Below are positions 1 through 41,257 of a stretch of DNA of 64,000 bases, piece after piece (positions within the stretch are counted from its first letter, which is position 1; each line of letters begins with the position of its first letter). The notes under the pieces are model-generated. The model was not told the origin of the DNA and made no database searches. It worked only from the letters and a program-made list of their open reading frames with translations. The stretch is taken from contig OX597825.1 of the NCBI GenBank assembly GCA_951406725.2, positions 33,232,001 through 33,296,000 on the forward strand. Reading direction: 5' to 3'. Origin of the DNA: Octopus vulgaris. Taxonomy: Eukaryota. The position numbers were made by a program, and so were the translations under genes.

Positions 1-420
1 TGAGCCTGGCTAGGCTTGAAAAGGGCGACGTTTATTGTTTTTTTTTATCGTATTGTACTTGTTAGTAGGGTGTTGTACGTAGCATGATGCATGTGGTGGT
101 TGTGATCTATATATAGGAATAAAGTGTTGTACACGGTGATAATGTGCTGTACATAATAATAGTGTTGTACATACTGGTAGTGTTTTGCATTTGGTAGTAA
201 TGTTTTGTGGTAGATGGTAGTAGAATTTTGTATATATTAGTACAGGTAGAACACTGACTCTTCAGATATTGATGATCTGGAAAGTCTTATAATCTTCACT
301 AATATATCAACAGAAACTTCAGATTCCTGCAGCTGCCAGACTAGTCTACTGGTATCTTACACAGTACCGAATTGATAAAATTGTGTTATTTATAATAATG
401 TACCTGTATTTCATTTAATT

Positions 421-645
421 ACTTTTTACTCTTTTACTTGTTTCAGTCATTTGACTGTGGCCATGCTGGAGCACCACCTTTAGTCGAGCAAATCAACCCC
501 AGGACTTATTCTTTGTAAGCCTAGTACTTATTCTATCGGTCTCTTTTGCTGAACCGCTAAGTTATGGGGATGCAAATACACCAGCATTGGTTGTCAAGCA
601 ATGTTGAGGGGTGGGGTGGAAGAGACAAACACAGACACACAAACT

Positions 646-683
<38 letters not shown>

Positions 684-855
684 CATATATACGACAGGCT
701 TCTTTCAGTTTCCGTCTACCAAATCTACTCACAAGGCTTTGGTCGGCCTGAGGCTATTGTAGAAGACATTTGCCCAAGGTGCCACACAGTGGGACTGAAC
801 CCAGAACCATGTGGTTGGTAAGCAAGCTACTTTCCACACAGCCACTCCTGCACCT
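421..855 (-). mobile_element. tRNA-derived SINE, family A (internal (CA)n/(TA)n tract)
   Basis: Reverse strand reads AGGTGCAGGAGTGGCTGTGTGG (A box) ... GGTTCAGTCCC (B box), a CORE-like GGCACCTTGGGCAA segment and the tail GACTGAAACAAGTAAAAGAGTAAAAG; more than 12 copies in the window. Confidence 0.85.
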
Positions 856-1022
856 AAGTAAATTTAATATTTGTTCAATTTAGAGTATAATTACTGCTGG
901 TTTGGAAAAATCAGTTGTTCAGAATGACTATGGAACCAAAGGTTGCAGAAAATTAATGTTATGCCTGTACATTTCAAATAATGATAGCATGTTGTATATT
1001 GTGGTAATATCTATGTTGATAT

Positions 1023-1246
1023 AAGGTGGTGAGTTAGCAGAATTGTTAGCATGCCAGGAAAAATGTTTAGTGGCATTTTGCTAATTTTTACTTTCTGAGT
1101 TCAAATTCTGCCAAGGTCGACTTTCCCTTTCATCCTTTCGGGGTCGCTAAAGATAAGTACCAGTTGAGCACTGTGAGCACTGGGTCAATCTAATCAACTT
1201 AACCCCTTCCCTGAAATTTCTGGCTTTATGCCAAACTTTGAAAGCA
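1023..1246 (+). mobile_element. SINE, family C (tRNA-like head, Nin/Deu-like central domain)
   Basis: AAGGTGGTGAGTTAGCAGAA head, GAGTTCAAATTC B box, CTTTCATCCTTTCGGGGTCG..AAGTACCAGT central motif; many copies in the window. Confidence 0.75.
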
Positions 1247-1552
1247 ATATTTATGTTGGTAGTGTTGTAAATGGAAGTGGTGTATTGTAAACGATAGTCT
1301 ATTAACTGTTACACTAGGTTTGGCATGGGCAACCTTTTTTGAGAAGTGGGCCACATGAGACATGGTTCCTCATCAGGTGGACTGCACAACTAAATAAATT
1401 AAATGTAATGTTTCATTTGGCATGCTATTCAGAGAGTCCCACAGCTTGCAGTCTACCCATGACTGCATTGGGTGTTGGTATGTAGTATATAGTAGTGTGT
1501 TGCATATGGTGACTGCTAGTGTGTTATAGATGTACCTGGATCTTTGGTGGGG

Positions 1553-1842
1553 TTTTTTTTTTCATGCTAAGAGTTGCTGAAGTATGGAACAAACTGCTGG
1601 TATCAGTTGTTGGTTGTCGGAGCACTGCATTCTTCAAAACTTCCATGCTTCTTGACATTCGCAAACACTACACCTGATTTTCTCCCCTCCATACACACGC
1701 AAGCATGTATCTGACTCATACACTGTTCACTTTCCAGACATTTGTACATTATTGCATATGCTTTATACACACTTTTGACAAGTTGTGGTGCACCTGAGTA
1801 CTGTATACAATAATTTCATCATTATTATTATCATTATTATTT
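1553..1842 (+). mobile_element. CR1/L2-type LINE 3' end with (ATT)n tail
   Basis: Translates FFMLRVAEVWNKLLVSVVGCRSTAFFKTSML, resembling the CR1 ORF2 C-terminus, followed by a short 3' UTR and (ATT)n. Confidence 0.7.
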
Positions 1843-1872
1843 TATTTGGTAGAATAATAAAAACAGCAATAC

Positions 1873-2114
1873 CTTGAATCACTAGAAACTGTATCTTGAC
1901 TGAGTAAAGAAACGATTTCATAATAAGGGTTAGTATTGCTTGTCCAAAGACATTGCAATAGATTTGGGTGTTTCACTTTTCGTAACATTCCAAGAACCAT
2001 GATTTCTTGTGCCCACAGTTTCTGCCAATTTTGACTGTAGGTTTTCATTAGACCTGTTTGAAGGAATTTCTTGTTGTCGATCCAAGAAGCTAAGAAGTGA
2101 TGTTTACCAGAATG
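1873..2114 (-). CDS. Exon encoding a protein-kinase-like N-lobe (TKL/TGF-beta-receptor-like); probable continuation of the 7TM gene
   Basis: Acceptor ttcattgctattttacag and donor AG|gtattg; 242 nt open. Encodes HSGKHHFLASWIDNKKFLQTGLMKTYSQNWQKLWAQEIMVLGMLRKVKHPNLLQCLW..., with beta3 Lys, alphaC Glu and HPN motif. Its phase 0 start matches the donor at 8706. Confidence 0.72.
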
Positions 2115-2894
2115 CTGTAAAATAGCAATGAAATATCTTCTGATATAAGCTATTCTCTCAATCAATCAGGACTTACCTTTTCCAGACACATATCAAGAAT
2201 AAAAATAGTTCTAATGAAATCCATAACAAATAGCAGCATAATTTCCCCATGGCCAGGCATGTTCTTGCAATATGCCAGAAATGAATGACACTTCATGTAT
2301 GACAGTGACAATCATTTACAACTATCATGAGATGCCAAGCCAAGAAGACACAAACACATACATGCTCACACACACATACACTCACACAAGATGAGTTTGT
2401 ATGAATTGTTATTTGTCCATATACTCGTTCTGACTGAACAGACCTGTGGTTAAAAACATTATATCTATGTCTAAATGAAATGCTTTCTCAAGACAAATAT
2501 TGTAGTGTTGTGGCTTTCTTACACTATATCCACATTAAGTAAGATATATTGATTGCTTTTCTGAATTAAACCTACTTCTGTCACTAATAACGAAAAAATC
2601 ATTGAATTACTTGTAAAAACTTCATGAGAATTCTTGTTGCAGCTCAGTCTAGCTGTACTTTTTATGAGCAATCTATTATTAATATATTTAGCTTGAAATT
2701 GAATTGTTAAAACATGAGTTTTTCTTAAAAAAAAAGATGCCTCATAAAAATCCAAATTTAATCAGAAAATATATCAAAGAGGCTACTCGACAATAAGTGT
2801 ATGATTACATTTTGGTGCAAGTTAGTGATAGTACAGGAATATGCTATGTAGTCATGCCACAAAGTCTGCAGGAATTATATATATACATATATAA

Positions 2895-3332
2895 TCTGAA
2901 TGTGGTCGGTGCCAGTACCCACTGACTGGCTCCTGTATTGGTGGCATGTAAAAAGCACTATCTAAATGTGATTTATGCCAGGGCCGCCTGACTGGCTCTT
3001 GTGCTGGTGGCATGAAAAATGCACCATCTGAATGTGCTCAATGCCAGTACCTGCTGACTTGCTCCCATGCCAGTGGCACGTAAAAAGCACTATCCATAAA
3101 TGATCGATACCAGTCCTGTCTAACTGGCTCCTGTGCTGGTGGCACATAAAAAGCACCCAATACACTCTTGGAGTTGTTGGCATTAGGAAGGGCATCCAGC
3201 TGTGGAAACATTGCCAGATCATATTGGAGCCAGGTGCAGCCTCTGGCTCTCCAAACCTCAGTCAAACTGTCCAACCCATGCCAGCATGGAAAACAGACGT
3301 TAAACCATGTTGATGATGATGATGATGATGAT
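2895..3332 (+). mobile_element. RTE LINE 3' UTR fragment (family B) with ~63-bp tandem units and (GAT)n tail
   Basis: Repeated GTGCTGGTGGCAC(A/G)TAAAAAGCAC units, then AGGAAGGGCATCCAGCTGT...GACGTTAAAC and (GAT)n; the same sequence adjoins an RTE ORF end at 18890-18990. Confidence 0.8.
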
Positions 3333-4496
3333 ATATATATATAAAACTAATGAAAGCACTTGACTGTAATTAGATTGTAATTCTAGCCATAATTGAGAAA
3401 TAAATTAAATTAATTAAAGAAATAACATGGAAAAGTAAGGATTTCTTCCTAATAAAATGATAAATGTGGAAAAGGAGCAAGGCAAGAGTAGTCAATTAAA
3501 TTGCTTCCCAGTTTTTGACTGGTACTTATTTTATGAACAAGAATGAAGAGCAGCAGTCTGTGGAATTTGAAATCAAAACATAGAAAGTTTCAACTACAAG
3601 ACATATTGACAAAAAAGGAAAATAAGTGAATAAAATAAAATAATATAGCTTCATCAGAGTTGAAAAAAATCAGCTTTCATGGACATTTAAAAGAACTTTG
3701 GATCATGTGGGAATAAGGATGATTTCATTCAGATAGAACACCTGAACTCAGTAGTTGCAACATTGGACTCTACTACAAACAACTAAGGGCTGGGTGGTGA
3801 TGGCATTAAAACAACTGAAGAATGAAGTATACCATACAAAATAGGTAATGGATTATCATCACCACTGCCGCCATCACCACTACCACCACCACCATAACCT
3901 CCTCCTCCTTCTTTTCCTCCTTCTCCTTCACCCATTGCCCTGTAGTTCTTTTGATCCTACTTATCTTGAGTATTTCTGATGTGATTGCTGGCCCTGTTAG
4001 TTCCCAAGAAATTTGGATCTTCTGTATGCCATTCATTACTCAACACATGTGCAATCCACCTACTCTGGAGGTCAGAGTGTGTTTCAGTTCACCTTTCTTC
4101 CTTTGAATGAATTTCTTTGTCCATATGATGTAAGTCTCTGGAACAAGGAAACTCTCTTTGTATCAAAACAATAAGTTTGTTTTGTTTTCTGCTAATATTT
4201 TTGGAATAAGAAATCCTTTGTGCAATAAGACTACTAACCCTACATCCAACCTGGAGGACTAAACCTGTGTGTAGCAGCCTTTTATAGCCAATCAGTAGGT
4301 ATTATTCTTTATATCTCCTAAAAGCTACTTCCCAAATATATAGGAAAACTCAATATTCAATACATTTCATCATATCACTGATTTAGAAGATGGAAAATAA
4401 TAAGAAGCATCTGAGGTGAAATTGAAAATTGAATGAAAAGTTCAAATAAAAAAAGTATAGCATATTCAATAACACTAGAGTAGTTCCAATAGCAGG

Positions 4497-5018
4497 GTTA
4501 TCATAGAGCAGCAGAATAGATCCAGGTTAAGGTACGTGATAAGAGCTGAATAGATCTGACACTAGGAGGGTATGTGATAATAATAGAATCCATCTTGTGC
4601 TAGGGTGTGTGATAGCAGTAGAATAGATTTAGTCCTAGGGGAGTATGTGATAACAGCTGAACAGATTCAGTGCTAGGAGGGTGTGTGATAATGGTAGAAT
4701 CCATCTTGTGATAGGGTATGTGATAGCAGTAGAATAGATCCAGTCAGCACTAGGAAAGTATGTGATAACAGTTGAATAGATTCAGTGCTAGGAGGATGTG
4801 GGTTAACAGTAAAATACATCACATGCTAGGGTATGTCATAACAGTTGGATAAATCTGGTGTTGGACTATATGATAACAGTTGAATAAGATCCATTACTAG
4901 GCAGGCATATGATAACAGTAGAGCAGATCCAATGTGAGGAGGGTATGTAATAGTACTTGAATACATCTTGAATCCAGATCTAATAGGGTACGGGATAACA
5001 GTAGAATTGATGGGGTGC
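4497..5018. repeat. Minisatellite, ~14 units of 35-42 bp with trimeric higher-order structure
   Basis: Consensus GTGATAACAGTAGAATAGATCCAGTGCTAGGAGGGTAT; unit lengths run about 38/35/38. Confidence 0.85.
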
Positions 5019-5619
5019 TTTTCACTTTCAGAGTTTCTTGTTAGGATGAGCCTAGCTTCATAAAGGGAGACATTCTAATTCATCAAAATCATCTCAAACT
5101 TCTTGGTCATAAACTGCTTCCTGTTAATGTAAAAACCTTTAATGACAATCTAATTATAAAAAATAGGTGCACACCCAGTAAAACAGAAAAGATGCTGAAA
5201 AGTTTCATGCAAATGTATACCTGATAACAAAAATCAAAATCATAATTCAAAACCGTTGTAAAGGAAAGAATGGTCTGAGCATGTTACTTAGTGATTAACT
5301 GTAGGCTTTTCACTGTGTTCTTCACCTGTAAATTCATGATATTAGTTATGAGTAAGGTAGCATTAATAACAACCAGGTAAATAAAACAGTAGACATGAGT
5401 AACAGTAGACATGAGTAACAGTAGACATTAAAACAGAAGAGGGACTTGTGAAAATAGGGACTTGTGAAATAGGGACTTGTGAAAAAAGTTAGTCTCTGTC
5501 ACAGGAAATATTCCAAAAAGACTCCTTGTCTCTCTCTTTTTATCTCACTCTTTTTCTTTCTTTTCTTTTCTTTCTGGCACTTACACACTTTAACCAATAT
5601 GTTAAACTGACACACTGTC

Positions 5620-5915
5620 TGTTACAACAATAAGGGTTCCTGTTGATCTGAGCAATGGCACTGCCTACTTATGAAATTAATGCGCATATGATTGGGTGCT
5701 CCACAGACATGTGTACCCTTGGTGTAGTTCTCAGGGAGATTCAGCATAACACAGCATGTGACAAAGCTGGTCTTTTGAATTACAGGTACTACTCATTTTT
5801 GCCAGCTGGAGCAACTTGAAATAAAGTGTCTTGCCCAAGGACACAATGCTCTACCGGATATCAAACTCACAAACTTATGATTGTGAGCCAAATATCCCTA
5901 AGCCATGCACCTACA
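5620..5915 (-). mobile_element. SINE, family E (shares 3' half with family D)
   Basis: CTCCACAGACATGTGTACCCTT..GTAGTTCTCAGGGAGATTCAGC matches the 3' half of 42341-42723; head GTGTCCTTGGGCAAGACACTTTATTTCA. Confidence 0.7.
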
Positions 5916-5999
5916 GTGGAAGCGGATAAAAATGGTATGGAGTGGAGATAATCAATGGTCTCTTGATGGCCTCAAGTTGTGTGCTGCAAATGACAAACA

Positions 6000-6185
6000 C
6001 ATGAAAAAGATTTTTGTAGGGGAAATGGCATGAAATTCAGTTTGGGGAAATAAACCAAAGCTACTTTAAAGAGTGGAGAATTAATGTGATTAGTAATACC
6101 ATGTTAGACTCAGAAATTAAGATAACAGATCTAGGCCAAATACAAACTTACAAATACTTGAGAAATAATGAACGAGATGGAGTAA
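6000..6185 (+). mobile_element. Degenerate R4/Dong-like reverse transcriptase fragment
   Basis: Translates GMKFSLGK*TKATLKSGEL...ITDLGQIQTYKYL, similar to the R4-clade MEFGLEKC...YKYLG region. Confidence 0.55.
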
Positions 6186-6226
6186 AAAAAATTAAATTCT
6201 TACAAATACTTAGAATTTAATGAACT

Positions 6227-6565
6227 CATGGCTGTGTGGTAGGTAGCTTGCTTACCAATCACATGGTTCCGGGTTCATTCACACTGTGTGGCACCTTGGG
6301 AAGGTATCTTCTACTATAGCCTCAGGCCGACCAAAGCCTTGTGAGTGGATTTGGTAGACGAAAACTGAAAGAAGCCCGTTGTATATATATGTATGTGTGT
6401 GTATATGTTGGTGTGTTTACATCCCCGTAACTCAGCAGTTCAGCAAAAGAGACTGATAGAATAAGTATTAGGCTTACAAAGAATAAGTCCTGTGGTCGAT
6501 TTGCTCGACTAAAGGTGGTGCTCCAGCATGGCTGCAGTCAAATGACTGAAACAAGTAAAAGAGTA
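6227..6565 (+). mobile_element. SINE family A
   Basis: Near-complete copy of the 421-855 element on the opposite strand. Confidence 0.85.
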
Positions 6566-7049
6566 CTCTATTTTCTGGTAAACAAGTTGAATTTTTCAGA
6601 TCAAAATTTACAACCAAAAGAACAAAAATCTGGAAGACCAATATTTCCATGCGAAATACAGAAGGATTTGATAAGATAGGGATGATATTTACATGTTTAC
6701 ACTATATACTTCAGTGACTTCTATACTGAAAAATGTGTTAGATGGAGTTTTAAAAAATGGAAGAAAACAATTGGTAAAGGATGTTATGGACGTAGTAGAT
6801 TACTCTTAAAATGAAAGTGAATGTTAAGATACTGTGTATTGATGGTTAAGCTACCCTCATAATAAGTTATAGTTTTATTTTCAACTGGAAGTCAAGTGAA
6901 TTGTCAAAACAAAATTGAAAAACAAGTAAAATAATGAATGCATTTAGAAGACATCACCCAGAATCTGACTAAGAAGTAATGCATATTCCCATAAGTACAA
7001 AGAGGCAGAGGTTGTCTGCAGTTACAAAATTATTATAAAATATCTGCTA

Positions 7050-7261
7050 TTGGATTACAAATATATATTGTAAATAACAAATGGGGAACTAATGTAAATA
7101 GTTATAAAATATGAAGAAAGATAGAAAAAAAGCAACCTATTTCTGTTATCAGAAATAACAGCTATAAAGAGAATTTACAGGAAGTATTAAAAATAAAACA
7201 AAAAAAGATGATACCAAATGGACTAGGTCTGTCCTTTGAATTGCAAGTACAACTCATTTTT
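7050..7261. repeat. Direct duplication, copy 1 (copy 2 at 8328-8545)
   Basis: About 210 bp, from TTGGATTACAAATATATATTG to GTAC(A/C)ACTCATTTTT, near-identical at both sites. Confidence 0.9.
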
Positions 7262-7699
7262 GCCAACTGAGTAGACTGGAGCAACATGAAATCAAAAAGT
7301 GTCTTGCTCTGCCAGGAATTGAACTCATGACCTTACGATCAGAGCTGATTACCCTAACCACTTAACCACGTGCCTTCACAAAAAGAATATATTAACCAAA
7401 CTATTCAAAGTTTTTAGTCAGAAGAGGAAGACAGTACCCATAACTTTTTACATGACTTTCGAAACTAAAAAAAATAAAGTTACCTTTATGCTGGAGACCT
7501 GATTCAGATATTTGTGAATGAGTGCATTCCACTAAAGGTAACCAAGGGCCAGTTGGTGGTGGTGGTGGTGGTTGTGATGATGTTAATTAGGTAACTGATT
7601 AAATAATCTATCATCCAGATAGATTTCATGTACTGGAAGCCATACACCTATATTATGGAATATGCACACTAAAAAAATAATGCAAACACAAATCACAAA

Positions 7700-8230
7700 A
7701 GGTCTTGTCCACTAAGATCAGAGTGACCCAGTACCTCAGTCTCCAAGTGTGTGTGCTGGAAAAATGCCATTGTGGAGCAGTACTTGATGAATTCAGCCTG
7801 CAGCCATTTTCCTGCAGCTATATGCTGCTCTGAATGACATAATTAGAAGGGGCCTTGATGTCACTGGCTTCCCATCTCAACTGAGCCAGTAGGCCTCAAC
7901 TGCAGGTATGGAAAGCACTCTGATGGAATAACTCTTTCCCCATACAAGGGAGGTAGATCCCTAGCCTGGGACATGATGTGCAGCAACATGTTCTCTGGCT
8001 CCAACCTTGTTGCATCAGCCACAAACCCAGATATTGCTGCCCATAACGCAGAGGAGAGAAGCACAAACAAATATGGGAGCCTGACTGTCACCATCAAGCC
8101 AATAAGGTGTTTTTGGACCACGCACAGCCAATTTCCTCCAAAAAATTGGGATAACTGCAGCCTGTCTGAGAAACAAGCCATGCAAGATGGGGTGGCCACT
8201 GCCATGAGTGTTGCAGGCTATTCTCCATGG
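7700..8230 (+). mobile_element. CRE-clade non-LTR retrotransposon C-terminal fragment (RLE endonuclease), frameshifted
   Basis: Piecewise translation AALNDIIRRGLDVTGFPSQ/EPVGLN..GKHSDGITLSPYKGGRSLAWDMMCSNMFSGSNL..AAHNAEERSTNKY fits the CRE pattern RPDG..W..GR.LAWD.T...AE..K..KY. Confidence 0.75.
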
Positions 8231-8327
8231 CAACAGCATCACAGTCTTGTCCACAGGGTGCAACTGAACATGGAATTTCCCGTCCCTTCTGCTGCTTAAT
8301 CTCATTCCCTTTTCTTTTTCTTTTTCT

Positions 8328-8545
8328 TTGGATTACAAATATATATTGTAAATAACAAATGGGAACTAATGCAAATAGTTATAAAATATGAAGAAAGATA
8401 GAAAAAAAAAGCAACCTATTTCTGTTATCAGAAATAACAGGTATAAAGAGAATTGTGAATCATTACAGGAAGTATTAAAAACAAAAGAAAAATGATACTA
8501 AATGGACTAGGTCTGTCCTTTGAATTGCAAGTACCACTCATTTTT
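8328..8545. repeat. Direct duplication, copy 2
   Basis: See 7050-7261. Confidence 0.9.
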
Positions 8546-8706
8546 CCCAGATTGTAATTCAGTCTAACAGATTCACAGTGAAATTGAAATAAGGAGGATA
8601 TTAGGGCATGAAATTAAAAACTGCACCAATAATAATTGGAGCATCAATTATAATTAAAGAAAAAAATAACAAAAACAACTATAACAGAAACAATGTAATA
8701 TTTTAC

Positions 8707-9639
8707 CTCAGTTCGTAAGAGTTCCAGTCGTTTTAGTTGACGAGATTCCTGTGAAATGTCACTTGGTTTTCCACAACATTCTTTCTTCATCCACAGAAAA
8801 TTGCCAAGGTTAGTGAAAATTCCATGGAGTGTGAGATAAATGCTAACTGTGATAATTGATGTGTCATGGTCATTGTTGGTTGTCTGTGAAACGGATTGCC
8901 GAAAAAGTAGTCGTGTTATCATGATACTTACGATAGTATAGATACATTGTTCGACCAGGAGTATTTTGTGTAATAACTGTCCCTGTGATATTACAGAAAC
9001 ATGGACATCTTCACTGGAATCATGTACCAAGCTGTTTTTTTTCTGGGATTTCACTAATCCAATAATACTGAAAATAAACGTGGTCACGATGACTATCCAG
9101 AAGCAAATTACTAACAGAGAAGTGTAAGTACCCCCAGATTCTTTTGGGTCATAAAGAGGGAAGAGATTGCTCCTGGAAGGTTTGAGTTGGTCTTGTTTAG
9201 GAATGACTGGCAAAATAGAAAGGAGCAGACAAGCAAGTTTTATACCAGTAAGTACTATTATTGAGGAACCAAGCTGATGGCTTGATGTACTGGATATCTT
9301 TCTCGGATTCTGTACAAATAATAGAATTGTCTGGAATGTAATAAAGGAGCACAAACCATCCATATATCCAAACAACATTAAACTCGATGATGCCAACACA
9401 AGGAATTTGGGAGTTGTACCATTGAGTACTAAAATACACAGATGCATCACCAGACCAATTCCAAAGAATAATGCTGAAGTATCAAGTAAACAAATAGAAT
9501 ATTTCCACAATTTTGGTAAAGATATTCCCTTGCAAAGTTTGTACACAAGTGAAATAAAACACATTAAAGCACCAATTGAAGAAAAGATGAAGTTGACTGT
9601 TATGAATGCAAAGTTGGTTCTGTGTGTTTCCATTTCCAT
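8707..9639 (-). CDS. Exon encoding a divergent 7TM domain (LGR/GRL101-like rhodopsin-class GPCR)
   Basis: 311 open codons with seven hydrophobic segments. LGR-like traces: ICLLDTSALFFGIGL (TM2), LLLSILPVI (TM4), SNLFPL..ESGGTYTSLL (ECL2/TM5). Ends RQLKRLELLRTE|gtaaaa (phase 0). Strong acceptor upstream at 9850. Confidence 0.8.
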
Positions 9640-36707: not shown

Positions 36708-37658
36708 GATTAAAGAATTATATCTGGAATAAACTTTTTTTAAATATAATGACAGCACCCTAACAATCTCTATTACAAATTATGGTTTCTAACATAGTTA
36801 TGGCAACAATAGATTTTAAGAGCAGGTAAAGTGAGTTCCTCTGATGTTCAAGGCTTTCCTGAGGACATCAATAGTACAAATAAAGGTGTTCCAACTGGGA
36901 ATTACAGCCAGTGAACTGTTTGCAGAGAATTTACCACCGTGTTTGCCATAAGTCCACCAACAATAAAGAATTCTTACATTTAAGGAACAAGTCTAACAAC
37001 ACCAAAAATAATCAAAATGTTTGATTTCTTCACAAAAGGAATGACGTTTAATTTCTTTCTTAAAGAAAATGTTATATTGAATAAATGAATAAATGACAAA
37101 GATTAAATGTCTTCTGTGAACCAATGTTTGTTGAAGAGTGTAGTCAGAATTGAAGAAGTCTTTTGAATTAGATATCCTCCAAACAGTAACTACACACATA
37201 CAAATATTTTCTCTGTAAATACAAAATGGTTTACATGTGTATGTGCAAGAGACTAAAAAAAATATTCATGTATATAAATATAAACATACATTTATTAATG
37301 CTGGCCTTATAAAGGTTTAAAACCCTTCTCAAATATTGACTATAGTCAAAGCTTAAAATTTCAAAACATTATCTTGTGGCTACATAAATTTTTATGTTCA
37401 TCATTTTTATTTATTGCAAACATTATAGCTGTCACTTTTCTTTCTTTTACAGCAGTGAACAAGCACTAATAATAATATTAAAAAAAAAACTTTTTATAGA
37501 AACATACAAAAACAATAAAATTTTGAACAGAATATTCAAAGTAAAAAATTATATAAAAAAATGGCAATGACACAATTAGTACATATTCACAATTCTTGTA
37601 ATTAATTTTAAAAAAAATACAAAAAAAATTGTTCTTGATGTTTATTATTTTCGTTATA

Positions 37659-37810
37659 CTAACATGTTTGAATGTTAGGAAAGACATGGGTTAGAATGAA
37701 AAAAGCTACATCTTGGTTTGACCAATAGGCAGTATGTGAAGTTAGTGCAGATATGTAACTATTCTCAAAACTGCTTTCTTTCAATTGAAAATCCATACGA
37801 TATTCCAGAA
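37659..37810 (-). CDS. DDHD1: Phospholipase DDHD1, last coding exon
   Basis: tttacag| then LEYRMDFQLKESSFENSYISALTSHTAYWSNQDVAFFILTHVFPNIQTC*; contains the C-terminal D, H and D residues of the DDHD domain. Confidence 0.93.
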
Positions 37811-37859
37811 CTGTAAAGGAAAAGAAAAAAGGATTTAAAAATTTTTTTTGTTTTGTTTT

Positions 37860-38192
37860 TGCTTCAGTCATTGGGCAGTGCCTTGAAAGATTTTGGTCAA
37901 ATGAATTGATCCCAGTACTTATTTATAATGTCTTATTCTATTGGTGTCTTTTGATGACCCACTAAGTTACAGGGACGTATACAGACCAGCACTGGTTGTC
38001 AAGCAGTGGGTGGGTGGAGGTGGATGGGGGCAAACAGACGTGAAGACAAACATTTTTTGGGCTTCTTTCAGTTTCTGTCTACTAAATCCGCTCACAAGGC
38101 TTTGATTACTCCATGGCTATAATAGAAGACACCAAACCTGGAACTATGTACTTTGGAAGCAAACTGCTAACCACACAGCCAAACCTGTACCT
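37860..38192 (-). mobile_element. SINE family A, degenerate
   Basis: Family A body and head. Confidence 0.7.
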
Positions 38193-38789
38193 CTCTTACC
38201 ACACAGCTACATGTATGCACAAATTATAATATAATTCTATAGAAAATGATGGATAAATTAAACATAATATTGTGACAGTGCAGAAGGACAGATAAAGCCA
38301 AATACTTAAAAAAAAACCCCCCAAAAAAACCCCCAAAACTTTCTATTATTCAAACCATGTAAACAAATGGATTAGAACAGCTGATATAGAAACCAGAATT
38401 AGAATTTCTCAATTATTTTCCTATAATTTGTGTTTATTCTTCTCTCTCAATCCAACAGCGAATTGTCATCCTATTTACTCCTACTGCCATGAAGTAGTGA
38501 CTGCTTCACTTGACACTCCAAATTCTAATTATACTCTGATGGTATTGATAAAAACCTTCATCAATGACACTAGTTGTTTTGATAATTGTTTTTATCAATG
38601 AAGCTTTTTCGGCCTCTCATCACAAAAGTCAATGAGTAGACTGCAGACTCTGAGATCTGTCATTGAATTTATCAGTGATGATATTGTCTCAAAGCAATGA
38701 ACAATGCAAAGCATATGAAAATTAGGTCATTTTGTCTGGGTGTTTGCTATCACCACACTCTGATCTTGTAGGTTCCAAGATCACTAATA

Positions 38790-39005
38790 GCCGTTCAAGA
38801 ATTTGGGCCTGGAGATCCCTATTTCCAGCGACTTCGAGGGCCACTTCCCAGTGGTGTTGGGCGTAAACGAAGAGCCCTCGACTACAACAAGACGATCAAA
38901 GTTTTTTTTCTTTTTTTCCTAAGGTCTGGGGTCTCCCGCCCCTAAGCCCTAGACCATCACCTAATCACCCTTACCCGTCTTGTTGCTTAACAACAACAAC
39001 AACAA
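38790..39005 (+). mobile_element. Young 5'-truncated non-LTR retroelement with (CAA)n tail
   Basis: Perfect 14-bp TSD CAAGATCACTAATA (38776-38789 and 39006-39019); GC/CpG-rich body. Confidence 0.8.
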
Positions 39006-39570
39006 CAAGATCACTAATATGCCCTCAGGGGCTAAGTTATCAGTTGATTACATTGTATATTTTAACATGTTAGCAGCATTTCCCAGCACTGAAATGTCTG
39101 AGCCCATATGAAGAGCTACACCAACTCAGGTGATACCATTGTTTAGTTTTATAACAATATGACACATTGGGAGGCGACTAAGCCAGGCACTGCCCCATAG
39201 CTCACATATAGCTATCAGCTATGCAAAAAGTTTTGTTGATTTTATATTTCTGCAAGTACATAGTCAATAACAATATGCTTTGCAGAAATATTCAATATCT
39301 ACAATGAATTTGAAACTTGTTTTCTTTGAATTCTGTAAACAGTATCATTTTATTATTATTTCATATGGATTACATCAAGTTGATTACCAATTTAATTTGA
39401 TACAGAAAAAAATAGATTAAGTAATAGTATTAATGGTATTCTTTTATTCTTTTATATGTTTCAGTCCAATGACTGTAGCCATGCTGGAGCACCGCCATTG
39501 AAATGCTGGAGCATATCTATATGTCTATTAGGAATAATGTAAAGTAAAAAAAAAATAATAAAGCACATAC

Positions 39571-39711
39571 CTGGGGCATTATGTACAGAACAACTCGGCA
39601 TTGGAGTTGGGTTCATTTCTTCTAACTGTCTTGCTTCCGTCTCCATTTTTTTAAGCTCACGAGTTAATAAATCTGAAGGTGACTTTTTAATTAAAGTTAA
39701 GAACATGTTTC
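39571..39711 (-). CDS. DDHD1: DDHD1 exon
   Basis: tttctgcag|...|gtatgt, 141 nt, phases 1/1 match the neighbouring exons; NMFLTLIKKSPSDLLTRELKKME... Confidence 0.85.
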
Positions 39712-39815
39712 CTGCAGAAAGAAAAGGGTGTAAGAGTGAATGATAGCTAGAAATTCCAAAAACAGAAAATGACAGTACTTGAAAAGATGAATCTTAAATC
39801 TAAAAATCAACCTAC

Positions 39816-40050
39816 CCAAAGAATATCCAATGGTTTTGGGTAAGGATGAGGATTCTGCTTCAGTTTCTGTGGAAGATTCAGGAATGCTTGCAATACTGTG
39901 TTCACTACTTGAATCAACAAGAGTATCAGAAGTACTCCCTCTTCCGGAACACTCTGAATAGGGTCTCTTTAATGGGGCATCAAACCGTTGGATGTCGACA
40001 GGTAAAATAGATGCATAATGTTTGTAGATTAAGGGTTCAATGCGATATGC
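39816..40050 (-). CDS. DDHD1: DDHD1 exon
   Basis: tttttag|AYRIEPLIYKHYASILPVDI...IGYSL|gtaggt, 235 nt; conserved DDHD AYRIEP motif. Confidence 0.92.
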
Positions 40051-40156
40051 CTAAAAATAGATTGATAATTTAATTGAAAATGCTATGCTCTAATTTACAC
40101 ACGTCAAAAGTTGTCATAATTATCCTCCCTGTTGATAGCTGTGTGTGTAACATCTT

Positions 40157-40385
40157 TTAACTCTTTAGCATTTAGACAGGCCACATCTGGCCCAAATATT
40201 TTACCTGTTTTATATTCAAACTGGCCAGATATAGCCTCTCACACATACACCACAATATCATTGTAAAAGTAAATAATCATATCATTGAAATTTTGAAGCT
40301 ATGAGATAATGCATGAATAGTTCAAAACGATGTGAATAAATAAGCAATACATTTGACAGAGTAATGAGAATGCAAAAGGGTTTAA
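40157..40385. mobile_element. TTAA-flanked MITE
   Basis: TTAACTCTTTAGCA...TGCAAAAGGGTTTAA. Confidence 0.75.
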
Positions 40386-41101
40386 CATTAAGATTTACAA
40401 CAGATAGTTTCATACCAGTAGATCCTCACATACCCTAACAATTAATATTATGGATTCTACAACAAATGGTTACTTTTCTTTATATAGCAATTTGGTGATT
40501 AGAAACTAGTAAATTTAAGAACTTGCTAACGAATTCAGTACGGGCAGCTGTGTAATTAAGGAGTTTACTTTCAATCTAAGTGTTCCATGTTCAATCCTGT
40601 TGTATATGTATGTGTATATTTGCATCTCCTTAAATCGTTATCTCAAAAGTGATGGGAGAGGAGAAAAGATGGGGTTTTCAATGGTTTTCAGATGAAGGAG
40701 AGAGAACAGAACATGGTTTAGGTACAAAAGGAAGAGACAGACAGACAGACAGACAGAAAGAAGGTAATACAGAAAGGAGGGAGAGAAGTGAAAGAATAAG
40801 GGAGAGGTAGCCAAGTTAATGATGTAAGATTAACAGCACTATGGTTTGTAATTTAGAATGTATACTACTCTGTTGTTTATAAGCAAGCAATTCAACTTTC
40901 TCTCATTCTGTATGGTCACCATACAATTAATAAATGGCTAATTAACTTGTGCAAATTTTAAAGTCTTTAATGGGTCTGTGTAATGACAGAAATCATCATA
41001 TTGTGTCCCTGTTGAACAAATTCTATAACTAATATTTGAAAGTGGACCCAATATGAATAAAAATTTGAACTGTGAAATTTATGCAGAATAAGCTTCCTTA
41101 C

Positions 41102-41257
41102 AATTGGGTCGGCTGGATGGTAAATGTTGAAGAGTCTATGACACAAATGTGATGGAATGACGTTTGGTTGTCCATTGTTATCACAGCCATGAAGAGGAAC
41201 ACCTCGGAGAGTTAGAAACACAGCCAAAGGAGAACCAAGACAAAAGAGGTTTTCTAC
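41102..41257 (-). CDS. DDHD1: DDHD1 exon (start of the DDHD domain)
   Basis: VENLFCLGSPLAVFLTLRG...CHRLFNIYHPADPI, 156 nt, canonical AG/GT. Confidence 0.95.

Follow-up and report, generated by a model that had tools for sequence, protein, structure and literature searches.

An octopus gene that joins a relaxin-receptor-like seven-transmembrane domain to a pseudokinase, and its counterparts across bilaterian animals

The question raised by a 64,000-nucleotide stretch of the Octopus vulgaris genome (contig OX597825.1, positions 33,232,001 to 33,296,000; hereafter the window, in whose coordinates features are given unless another stretch is named) is whether two reading frames on its minus strand, one resembling the seven-transmembrane (7TM) domain found in G-protein-coupled receptors (GPCRs) and the other the N-lobe of a protein kinase, are parts of one protein. 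A sequence-only reading of the window had proposed such a single-chain receptor, with a 7TM domain like that of GRL101 and other leucine-rich repeat-containing GPCRs (LGRs) spliced to a TGF-beta-receptor-like kinase or pseudokinase. A five-exon frame, RefSeq gene models, further family members and a structural model of an amphioxus member bear out this proposal, the likeness to TGF-beta receptors only in part; none of the observations named beforehand as refuting it turned up in the sequence data. Judged from sequence, the fusion of a 7TM domain and a kinase fold in one gene is real, and the gene belongs to an old bilaterian family and is not a cephalopod novelty.

The receptor starts within a minus-strand open reading frame (ORF) at 9672-8644, whose first Met lies at 9639; a stop in the same frame, at 9675-9673, stands 11 codons upstream of this Met. 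Coding exon 1 (8707-9639, minus strand; residues 1-311) encodes a 10-residue N-terminus, seven transmembrane (TM) helices, a Cys-Cys linker and the first strand of the kinase N-lobe; mapped from an AlphaFold model, TM helices 1-7 fall at about 9636-9532, 9513-9427, 9408-9316, 9282-9214, 9132-9043, 9012-8902 and 8880-8773. The frame reads ...RQLKRLELLRTE, ending in LELLRTE at 8707, where the phase-0 donor GTAAAA opens intron 1 (2115-8706, minus strand; 6,592 nucleotides, GT...AG). Coding exon 2 (1873-2114, minus strand; residues 312-391 plus 2 nucleotides) follows an acceptor reading ...ttttacag, starts in phase 0 with HSGKHHFLASW and ends after 242 nucleotides in phase 2 at GTATTG; the donor at 8707 and this exon are present in the phases that the sequence-only reading had given. 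Exon 2 encodes a pseudokinase N-lobe with W322 (2084), the beta3 Lys K335 (2045), W345 (2015), the alphaC Glu E348 (2006), the His H360 of an HPN motif (1970) and W368 (1946), together with a degenerate Gly loop and an insert of about 20 residues between strands beta4 and beta5. Intron 2, about 2.8 kb in all, begins at 1-1872 (minus strand), and the gene runs on to the left of the window. There, 938 bases from position 1, exon 3 (L002 9062-8867) starts in phase 2, as had been predicted, and encodes the hinge, helix E and a dead catalytic loop, HKHLSSIR; exon 4 (L002 7939-5387) encodes a DFE motif, helix F, a 738-residue insert and the helix G region, and exon 5 (L003 8023-7922) helices H-I and the C-terminal ETTV, followed by the stop. 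These three exons, 0.9-12.1 kb left of the window, supply the kinase C-lobe that had been expected in this direction. The five exons (933, 242, 196, 2,553 and 102 nucleotides) translate into 1,341 residues with a single terminal stop.

Exon 1 agrees at every residue (100% identity) with positions 1-311 of Octopus sinensis LOC115217889 (P0001), and the complete translation differs from P0001 at 7 positions and from the 1,058-residue O. vulgaris model P0005 at none. The joined peptide of exons 1 and 2 matches, residue for residue, the junction of O. sinensis XP_036363744-6 and Octopus bimaculoides XP_014780971, and the same junction is present in an Argonauta model; three RefSeq accessions for one protein suggest alternative untranslated exons. 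Each window exon matched only itself in its own genome, in a search that scored best candidates only. Within intron 1, one other phase-0 open stretch of at least 50 residues follows a pyrimidine-rich acceptor, and it lies inside a reiterated stretch. Logan contigs of 4.3-5.9 kb, too short for the introns of this cluster, hold intact orthologous ORFs of 1,309-1,393 residues. Read-through fragments of the same cluster break off at the octopus intron positions, which indicates that these species have the introns and that the long Logan contigs are most likely spliced transcripts. In the octopus, read-through from exon 1 into intron 1 meets a stop at 8646-8644, with no AATAAA or ATTAAA in 8644-8001, and the read-through ORFs of its relatives end at the same place. 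Among 24 ORFs that encode the 7TM domain only, the six closest continue with Val at the junction column itself, and in 20 a Val lies no more than a few residues away, as expected from a shared phase-0 GT donor.

The kinase identity of the fused domain appears in Pfam once the exons are joined. PK_Tyr_Ser-Thr (PF07714) scores above its cut-off in the full octopus protein (30.5 bits), and the three single-exon ORFs of the window yield no Pfam family. No 7tm_1 match above the cut-off was obtained for the octopus protein; the Diadema member reaches 27.8 bits against a cut-off of 30.5, and only the relative P0113 passes (117 bits). The family stayed hidden because Pfam misses the 7TM domain and sees only a 70-residue kinase fragment. 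Across 38 full-length members, the beta3 Lys is kept in 36, the alphaC Glu in 38, the catalytic-loop His in 38, the DFG Asp in 36 and the helix-F Asp in 38; the catalytic Asp survives in one, the Mg-binding Asn of the catalytic loop in three and the DFG Gly in one. The octopus domain has lost the HRD Asp (HKHLSSIR) and reads DFE at the DFG position, its Gly loop, earlier noticed as degenerate, is reduced to one Gly, an APE motif is absent, and only 27 residues separate DFE from helix F. By the usual criteria, this motif census resolves the earlier choice between kinase and pseudokinase in favor of a pseudokinase. Exon 1 supplies the first strand of the kinase, which leaves each half incomplete on its own.

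The pseudokinase is predicted to be split. The insert after helix F measures 738 residues in the octopus and 323-1,258 residues in the 17 members measured; it consists of about 70% polar residues, with 18-25% Ser and Thr, and is predicted to be disordered in the octopus. It lies outside the window, and for this reason the split had been missed. In the full-length amphioxus model, the predicted local distance difference test score (pLDDT) is about 80-97 over most of the 7TM domain, residues 371-590 and residues 921-990, and about 30 at residues 595-915. Complete kinase domains (Src, TNNI3K, TGF-beta receptor I, ActRII, IRAK4 and JAK1) align across residues ~360-999 of this model, with 235-251 residues aligned, root-mean-square deviations (rmsd) of 2.9-4.1 and Z scores of 21.5-22.5. 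The C-terminal ~90 residues are thus predicted to fold back and complete the kinase C-lobe, leaving the insert as a giant loop. A profile of the last ~105 residues, which falls on the helix H-I stretch of ordinary kinases, gave 11 domain hits of at least 5 bits among 79 non-family sequences, whereas each of 20 shuffles gave none; five of these hits begin 60-200 residues after a matched HRD-like motif, and the 30 best hits, inspected by eye, all lie on C-W/L..P..RP stretches.

Insert and tail carry short conserved motifs. The C-terminus has the form x-S/T-x-V/L/I in 34 of the 38 members, which is the class I PDZ pattern, and the tail is by motif match a putative PDZ ligand. The alignment itself served to define two basic motifs, which are present in 22 and 26 of 30 molluscs but in none of eight other members. 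DSGxx[ST] is found in the insert of all 30 molluscs (2.2 expected from shuffles) and in 4 of the 8 others (0.4 expected), its conserved form being DSGF(D/E)(S/T). DSGXXS is given as the consensus degron of beta-TrCP in the available text of PMC13097077, and the insert is a putative carrier of a degron of this type.

The 7TM domain retains a class A fold. Seven helices are present in the octopus AlphaFold model, and a Foldseek search with the octopus 7TM domain returned class A GPCRs in all top rows (E about 1e-4); the ESM Atlas, queried with residues 1-300, gave only leads below 0.9 among 7TM families. The 7TM domain of the amphioxus model aligns with TSHR, RXFP1 and a Caenorhabditis elegans LGR at Z 24.2-24.5 (TSHR: Z 24.5, rmsd 2.9, 251 residues). 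The LGR assignment made earlier is sharpened by profile searches against solved structures: RXFP1 was the best match to a 25-sequence 7TM profile (E 2.3e-9; next match 9e-4), to a broad family profile (4.4e-21, followed by TSHR, LHCGR, FSHR and LGR4) and to the Ptychodera member alone (1.2e-14, followed by the C. elegans LGR, TSHR, LHCGR and FSHR). These matches support a placement closest to the type C LGRs of the RXFP1 lineage, with types C1 and C2 not separated by them. The absence of DRY and NPxxY from the octopus 7TM domain, recognized at the outset, extends to the family, in which a DRY-like motif occurs in 1 of 38 members and NPxxY likewise in 1 of 38. The disulfide cysteines of TM3 and the second extracellular loop (ECL2) are kept in 29 and 31 of 33 non-cephalopods; both are absent in all five cephalopod proteins, a lineage-specific change at the extracellular face (9408-9140, minus strand). 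The seven helices, and with them an ECL2 motif, persist throughout the bilaterian tree. As a candidate upstream ectodomain, LDLa, leucine-rich repeat (LRR) and LGR-hinge motifs were sought on the window's minus strand and none was found; together with the in-frame stop 11 codons upstream, this leaves no ectodomain evident in the octopus gene. Residues preceding TM1 number 0-33 in 37 of 38 members and 71 in one model.

The relative P0113 (3,282 residues) links the full LGRs, on sequence grounds, with this ectodomain-less family. It combines MAM, LDLa, CUB and LRR domains with a 7tm_1 domain that has ADRF and NPVLY, and continues into a kinase-like domain of the family type (hhalign E 2.8e-18 against the family) that lacks the long insert. 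In its full architecture, P0113 appears as a giant type C LGR with five MAM domains, LDLa, C-type lectin, laminin G, fn2, pentraxin, CUB and LRR domains, an intact 7TM domain and a short form of the family pseudokinase.

The ancestry of the kinase is harder to trace. The domain appears to be of tyrosine kinase (TK) or tyrosine kinase-like (TKL) type, and descent from a TGF-beta receptor is plausible at about even odds; the earlier comparison with these receptors holds for the beta3-alphaC signature and helix H, and fails for the catalytic core and the overall rankings. The TGF-beta receptor sequences used for comparison were taken from the octopus genome. A Trp at +10 and a Glu at +13 after the beta3 Lys mark 37 of 38 family members; of 68 panel kinases 4 have this pair, each of them a TGF-beta receptor. 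Scored against the family N-lobe profile, five exons of octopus TGF-beta receptors take places 3, 4, 5, 6 and 8 of 103, and the C-terminal profile scores highest (13.4 bits) on the exon that encodes helix H of the octopus ALK2-like receptor. Against this ancestry, the whole-domain rank is 89 of 97, though the panel had been assembled with the help of the family profile, a choice biased against this ancestry; the spacer from helix E to the catalytic His has 5 residues, vs. 13 and 16 in TGF-beta receptors; and no TGF-beta receptor appears in the top 60 of three PDB profile searches, which were led by LIMK1, LRRK2, RAF, TYK2 and EGFR via the helix E-F core. The TGF-beta-receptor likeness of the sequence is limited to the N-lobe and helix H, and the core differs. 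Structural comparison with the amphioxus model does not discriminate, since TGF-beta receptor I (248 residues, rmsd 3.5, Z 21.9) and ActRII (244, 3.4, 21.7) tie with Src (235, 2.9, 22.5) and IRAK4 (Z 21.8). The nearest intact kinases are P0160 (771 residues) and P0186 (651 residues), single-pass receptors with a weak hit to a Frizzled-like cysteine-rich domain (CRD), which form the sister group of the family in the kinase tree (support 100/99; hhalign E 5.9e-27). A wider branch (90/90, not starred) unites the family and these Frizzled-CRD kinases with three TGF-beta receptors and two tyrosine kinases. An octopus orthologue of the Frizzled-CRD kinases was not found in one stricter first look, which does not show its absence. 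P0160 and P0186 have intact HRD, DFG and APE motifs, the family's unusual N-lobe and a RPPIPERW stretch as in the ALK2-like receptor; their best PDB match has E 2.5e-13 with no named kinase subfamily matching well, and they may represent an undescribed receptor-kinase family. Of the octopus genes themselves, the ALK2-like type I TGF-beta receptor (L019 4659-9510) carries its kinase from Gly loop to helix F in one exon, and four further TGF-beta receptor genes lie in L033-L045.

A search for the architecture in mollusc and other lophotrochozoan proteomes had been suggested; it was found there and in deuterostomes as well. A search with residues 1-520 yielded 27 proteins among 5,882 candidates, from cephalopods, bivalves and gastropods. 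When a 12-sequence profile was searched in 1.84 billion representatives, 23 hits reached E 1e-30 and 114 reached 1e-10; of the 150 hits listed, 20 were looked up, nine of them without a species name. Named hits came from Lingula, Owenia, Watersipora, Ptychodera, Saccoglossus, Antedon, Diadema, Branchiostoma, Biomphalaria, Patella and Solemya. Members occur in cephalopods, bivalves, gastropods, a brachiopod, an annelid, a bryozoan, hemichordates, echinoderms and amphioxus; the 38 full-length members from seven phyla share the same three-part order, and most are labelled "uncharacterized," apart from single automatic labels of LRRK2 or RXFP2. No named vertebrate, arthropod, nematode or cnidarian protein was among the 20 hits looked up, nine of them unnamed, which does not establish that these groups lack the family. 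When the broad alignment A4 served as profile query, only its own first sequence came back (1 of 7,999 candidates), the search being crowded by shared words. In a kinase tree of 45 rows, 22 of them panel domains taken one per protein in list order, the family, represented by 13 rows, comes out as a single group (99/96), within which deuterostomes (97/93) stand apart from lophotrochozoans (83/40), a split that fits vertical descent. Both kinase halves are more conserved than the 7TM domain: between the octopus and the coleoid P0003, identity is 79% in the N-terminal and 80% in the C-terminal kinase part, 59% in the 7TM domain and 40% in the insert, and between the octopus and Mercenaria it is 48, 43, 30 and 16%, respectively.

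The family resembles the type C LGR RXFP1 in its 7TM sequence and fold. The LRR, LDLa and hinge elements that define type C LGRs in the available sections of PMC11863921 and PMC8286064 are missing from it, as are DRY and NPxxY, and a pseudokinase with the long insert (738 residues in the octopus) follows TM7 instead. With the GPCR-kinase fusions, or GPCR-bigrams, it shares a 7TM domain followed by a protein-kinase fold in one chain; it differs from them in its LGR-derived 7TM domain and in a kinase that is a pseudokinase and split. The accessible text of PMC5784254 confines GPCR-TKLs to oomycetes and amoebozoans; that of PMC12716839 adds choanoflagellate and sponge fusions, so that the known kinds are oomycete and amoebozoan GPCR-TKLs, choanoflagellate GPCR-TKL/Ks and choanoflagellate and sponge GPCR-TKs, and states that no GPCR-kinase fusion has been functionally characterized. 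Since its 7TM domain is of LGR type, the present family may well have arisen independently of these protist, choanoflagellate and sponge fusions. In the sections available, Yin et al. (2023; PMC10463195) report metazoan GPCR-TMKs in sea urchins, nested in the TK clade, and describe no family. Among the sea-urchin rows listed in their supplement is XP_030855453 (545 residues, seven TM helices at 13-291, PF07714 at 462-527), whose layout matches that of the Diadema member P0104 (543 residues, PF07714 at 463-525); judged by layout, it probably belongs to the same family, so that a member is probably already in print, as an undescribed entry of the TK clade. Kinase-fused LGRs are not described in the available portions of PMC8286064, PMC11863921, PMC9545775 and PMC2246102, and the word "kinase" does not occur in those of the amphioxus GPCR survey (PMC2246102) and the placozoan and cnidarian LGR review (PMC9545775). 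A literature search, with subscription journals mostly outside its coverage, turned up no account of this family, of its descent from LGRs or of a split pseudokinase, and the family apparently is undescribed as such.

TGF-beta, activin and BMP receptor kinases share with the family the Trp+10/Glu+13 signature, N-lobe similarity and helix H; unlike them, the family has no Cys-rich activin-receptor ectodomain (the activin-type receptor Pfam domain is absent from the members scanned), no single TM segment and no GS box, and it is not catalytic. The receptor pseudokinases and scaffolds HER3, PTK7, ROR, RYK, KSR and MLKL likewise use a kinase fold without catalysis as a switch or scaffold, yet these are single-pass or soluble proteins; MLKL, KSR and LIMK1 chains with an Asp-to-Asn change were among the family's PDB sequence hits. 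We know of no such pseudokinase, nor of any kinase with a long insert, that is fused to a class A 7TM domain or split after helix F by 300-1,250 residues. The predicted split of the kinase by a long insert after helix F, closed by a C-terminal segment that completes the C-lobe, would be new.

We hold, with somewhat more confidence than doubt, that the gene encodes a single-chain orphan receptor in which a relaxin-receptor-derived, ectodomain-less 7TM domain and a split pseudokinase would act as a G-protein-independent, phosphorylation-regulated scaffold. Tethered about 10-15 residues after TM7, the pseudokinase may occupy or gate the cytoplasmic G-protein-binding face. A change in the 7TM domain, caused by a small ligand, a lipid or a partner receptor (no LRR or LDLa domain being left to bind a hormone of the relaxin type), would then be passed on to the pseudokinase. 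This domain would work as a conformational switch and as a surface for docking, and might bind nucleotide while remaining non-catalytic. Partner kinases might then phosphorylate the Ser/Thr-rich loop, the phosphorylated degron could recruit SCF-beta-TrCP and end the signal, and the PDZ-type tail may localize the receptor. A more detailed history falls a little short of being probable: a relaxin-type GPCR would have captured a TGF-beta-receptor-like kinase, the kinase died, and a copy older than the protostome-deuterostome split lost its ectodomain, gained the giant C-lobe loop and was kept from octopus to amphioxus as a G-protein-free 7TM domain that switches a split pseudokinase, whose halves clamp a degron-controlled loop.

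Several observations weigh against this favored interpretation. The fold-back comes from one single-chain model, of the amphioxus member only, and AlphaFold may owe the completed C-lobe to its resemblance to solved kinases; for the octopus, the 7TM-kinase model has a mean pLDDT of 58 and is poor in the kinase part, which lies mostly at 40-55. With predicted template modelling scores (pTM) of 0.49-0.52, the orientation of the 7TM domain to the kinase is not fixed by the model, and the gating step is thus without structural support. The degron and PDZ assignments are motif matches in counts that related species inflate. Four deuterostome members with an intact TM7 keep xPxxY, and class A receptors that lack canonical DRY or NPxxY motifs can still be G-protein-coupled. 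Saccoglossus P0204, alone among the members, keeps both catalytic Asp and Asn (HNDVTATN). This model lacks TM5-TM7, and its annotation may be incomplete.

An orphan GPCR still coupled to G proteins or arrestin, with the pseudokinase as a built-in regulator, a lid or desensitizer released on activation, would account for the preserved class A fold seen by Foldseek and in the match to TSHR, RXFP1 and the C. elegans LGR, and for the TM3-ECL2 cysteine pair outside cephalopods; P0113, as the ancestral form, has ADRF and NPVLY beside a family kinase-like tail, which indicates that fusion and G-protein motifs can coexist. We nevertheless regard such coupling as unlikely in the ectodomain-less family, with its near-universal loss of DRY-like and NPxxY motifs, the missing disulfide cysteines of every cephalopod protein and a 7TM domain that evolves faster than the pseudokinase. 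Another reading reduces the 7TM domain to an anchor or dimerization module of a ligand-less co-receptor that tunes an active receptor kinase, for instance one of the TGF-beta family or a Frizzled-CRD kinase. The seven helices and ECL2 motif maintained across bilaterians exceed the needs of an anchor, and the candidate partner, an octopus Frizzled-CRD orthologue, did not turn up in the stricter first look mentioned above, which leaves its absence unproven; this alternative is decidedly improbable, even though the short N-terminus, the single-pass nature of the nearest intact kinases, the TGF-beta-receptor-like beta3-alphaC signature and the disulfide loss in cephalopods all agree with it.

The kinase domain might also be an atypical, weakly active enzyme, making the protein a true receptor kinase of the 7TM kind, with its own loop or a partner as substrate. 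Some pseudokinases that lack the Asp keep trace activity, the beta3 Lys, alphaC Glu and DFG Asp are nearly invariant here, one member keeps HND and the Asn, and the insert is rich in Ser and Thr. Replacement of the catalytic Asp in 37 of 38 members, the Asn in 35 and the DFG Gly in 37, along with the single Gly of the loop, the lack of APE and the short DFE-to-helix F segment of the octopus, make residual catalysis very improbable. Finally, the fusion could be an annotation artefact in which predictors joined a single-exon 7TM gene to a separate kinase-like gene; read-through 7TM-only ORFs are in the database (P0007, P0008), and P0005, which begins only at residue 284, is missing most of the 7TM domain. 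This explanation is close to refuted: independent annotations from seven phyla share the junction, Logan contigs of intron-less size carry the intact ORF, the first kinase strand lies in exon 1, the read-through ORFs stop matching exactly at the donor, and P0005 itself still holds the junction.

Placed beside the parts of the reviews (PMC5784254, PMC12716839) that assign GPCR-kinase fusions to protists, choanoflagellates and sponges, a class A GPCR-kinase fusion across seven bilaterian phyla bears on early animal domain exchange between LGRs and receptor kinases. It offers a rhodopsin-class receptor apparently hard-wired to a pseudokinase, as well as a natural split kinase, predicted to close over 300-1,250 residues, and it is a single knock-out target in tractable animals (amphioxus, sea urchin, Aplysia, Biomphalaria, oyster and octopus).

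Upstream of the receptor, a pyrimidine-rich AG at 9851-9850 (minus strand) is a possible acceptor for exon 1 and would give a 5' untranslated region at 9851-9640 with several upstream ATGs. Elsewhere in the octopus genome, L042 holds an intronless 855-residue frame with ankyrin repeats and a TNNI3K-like kinase. The exons at 37650-41257 (minus strand) are the last exons of a DDHD-domain phospholipase gene (Pfam DDHD); considered as a possible receptor ectodomain, they were rejected as belonging to this other gene, whose final exon apparently ends near 37660, about 28 kb upstream of the receptor start codon on the same strand.

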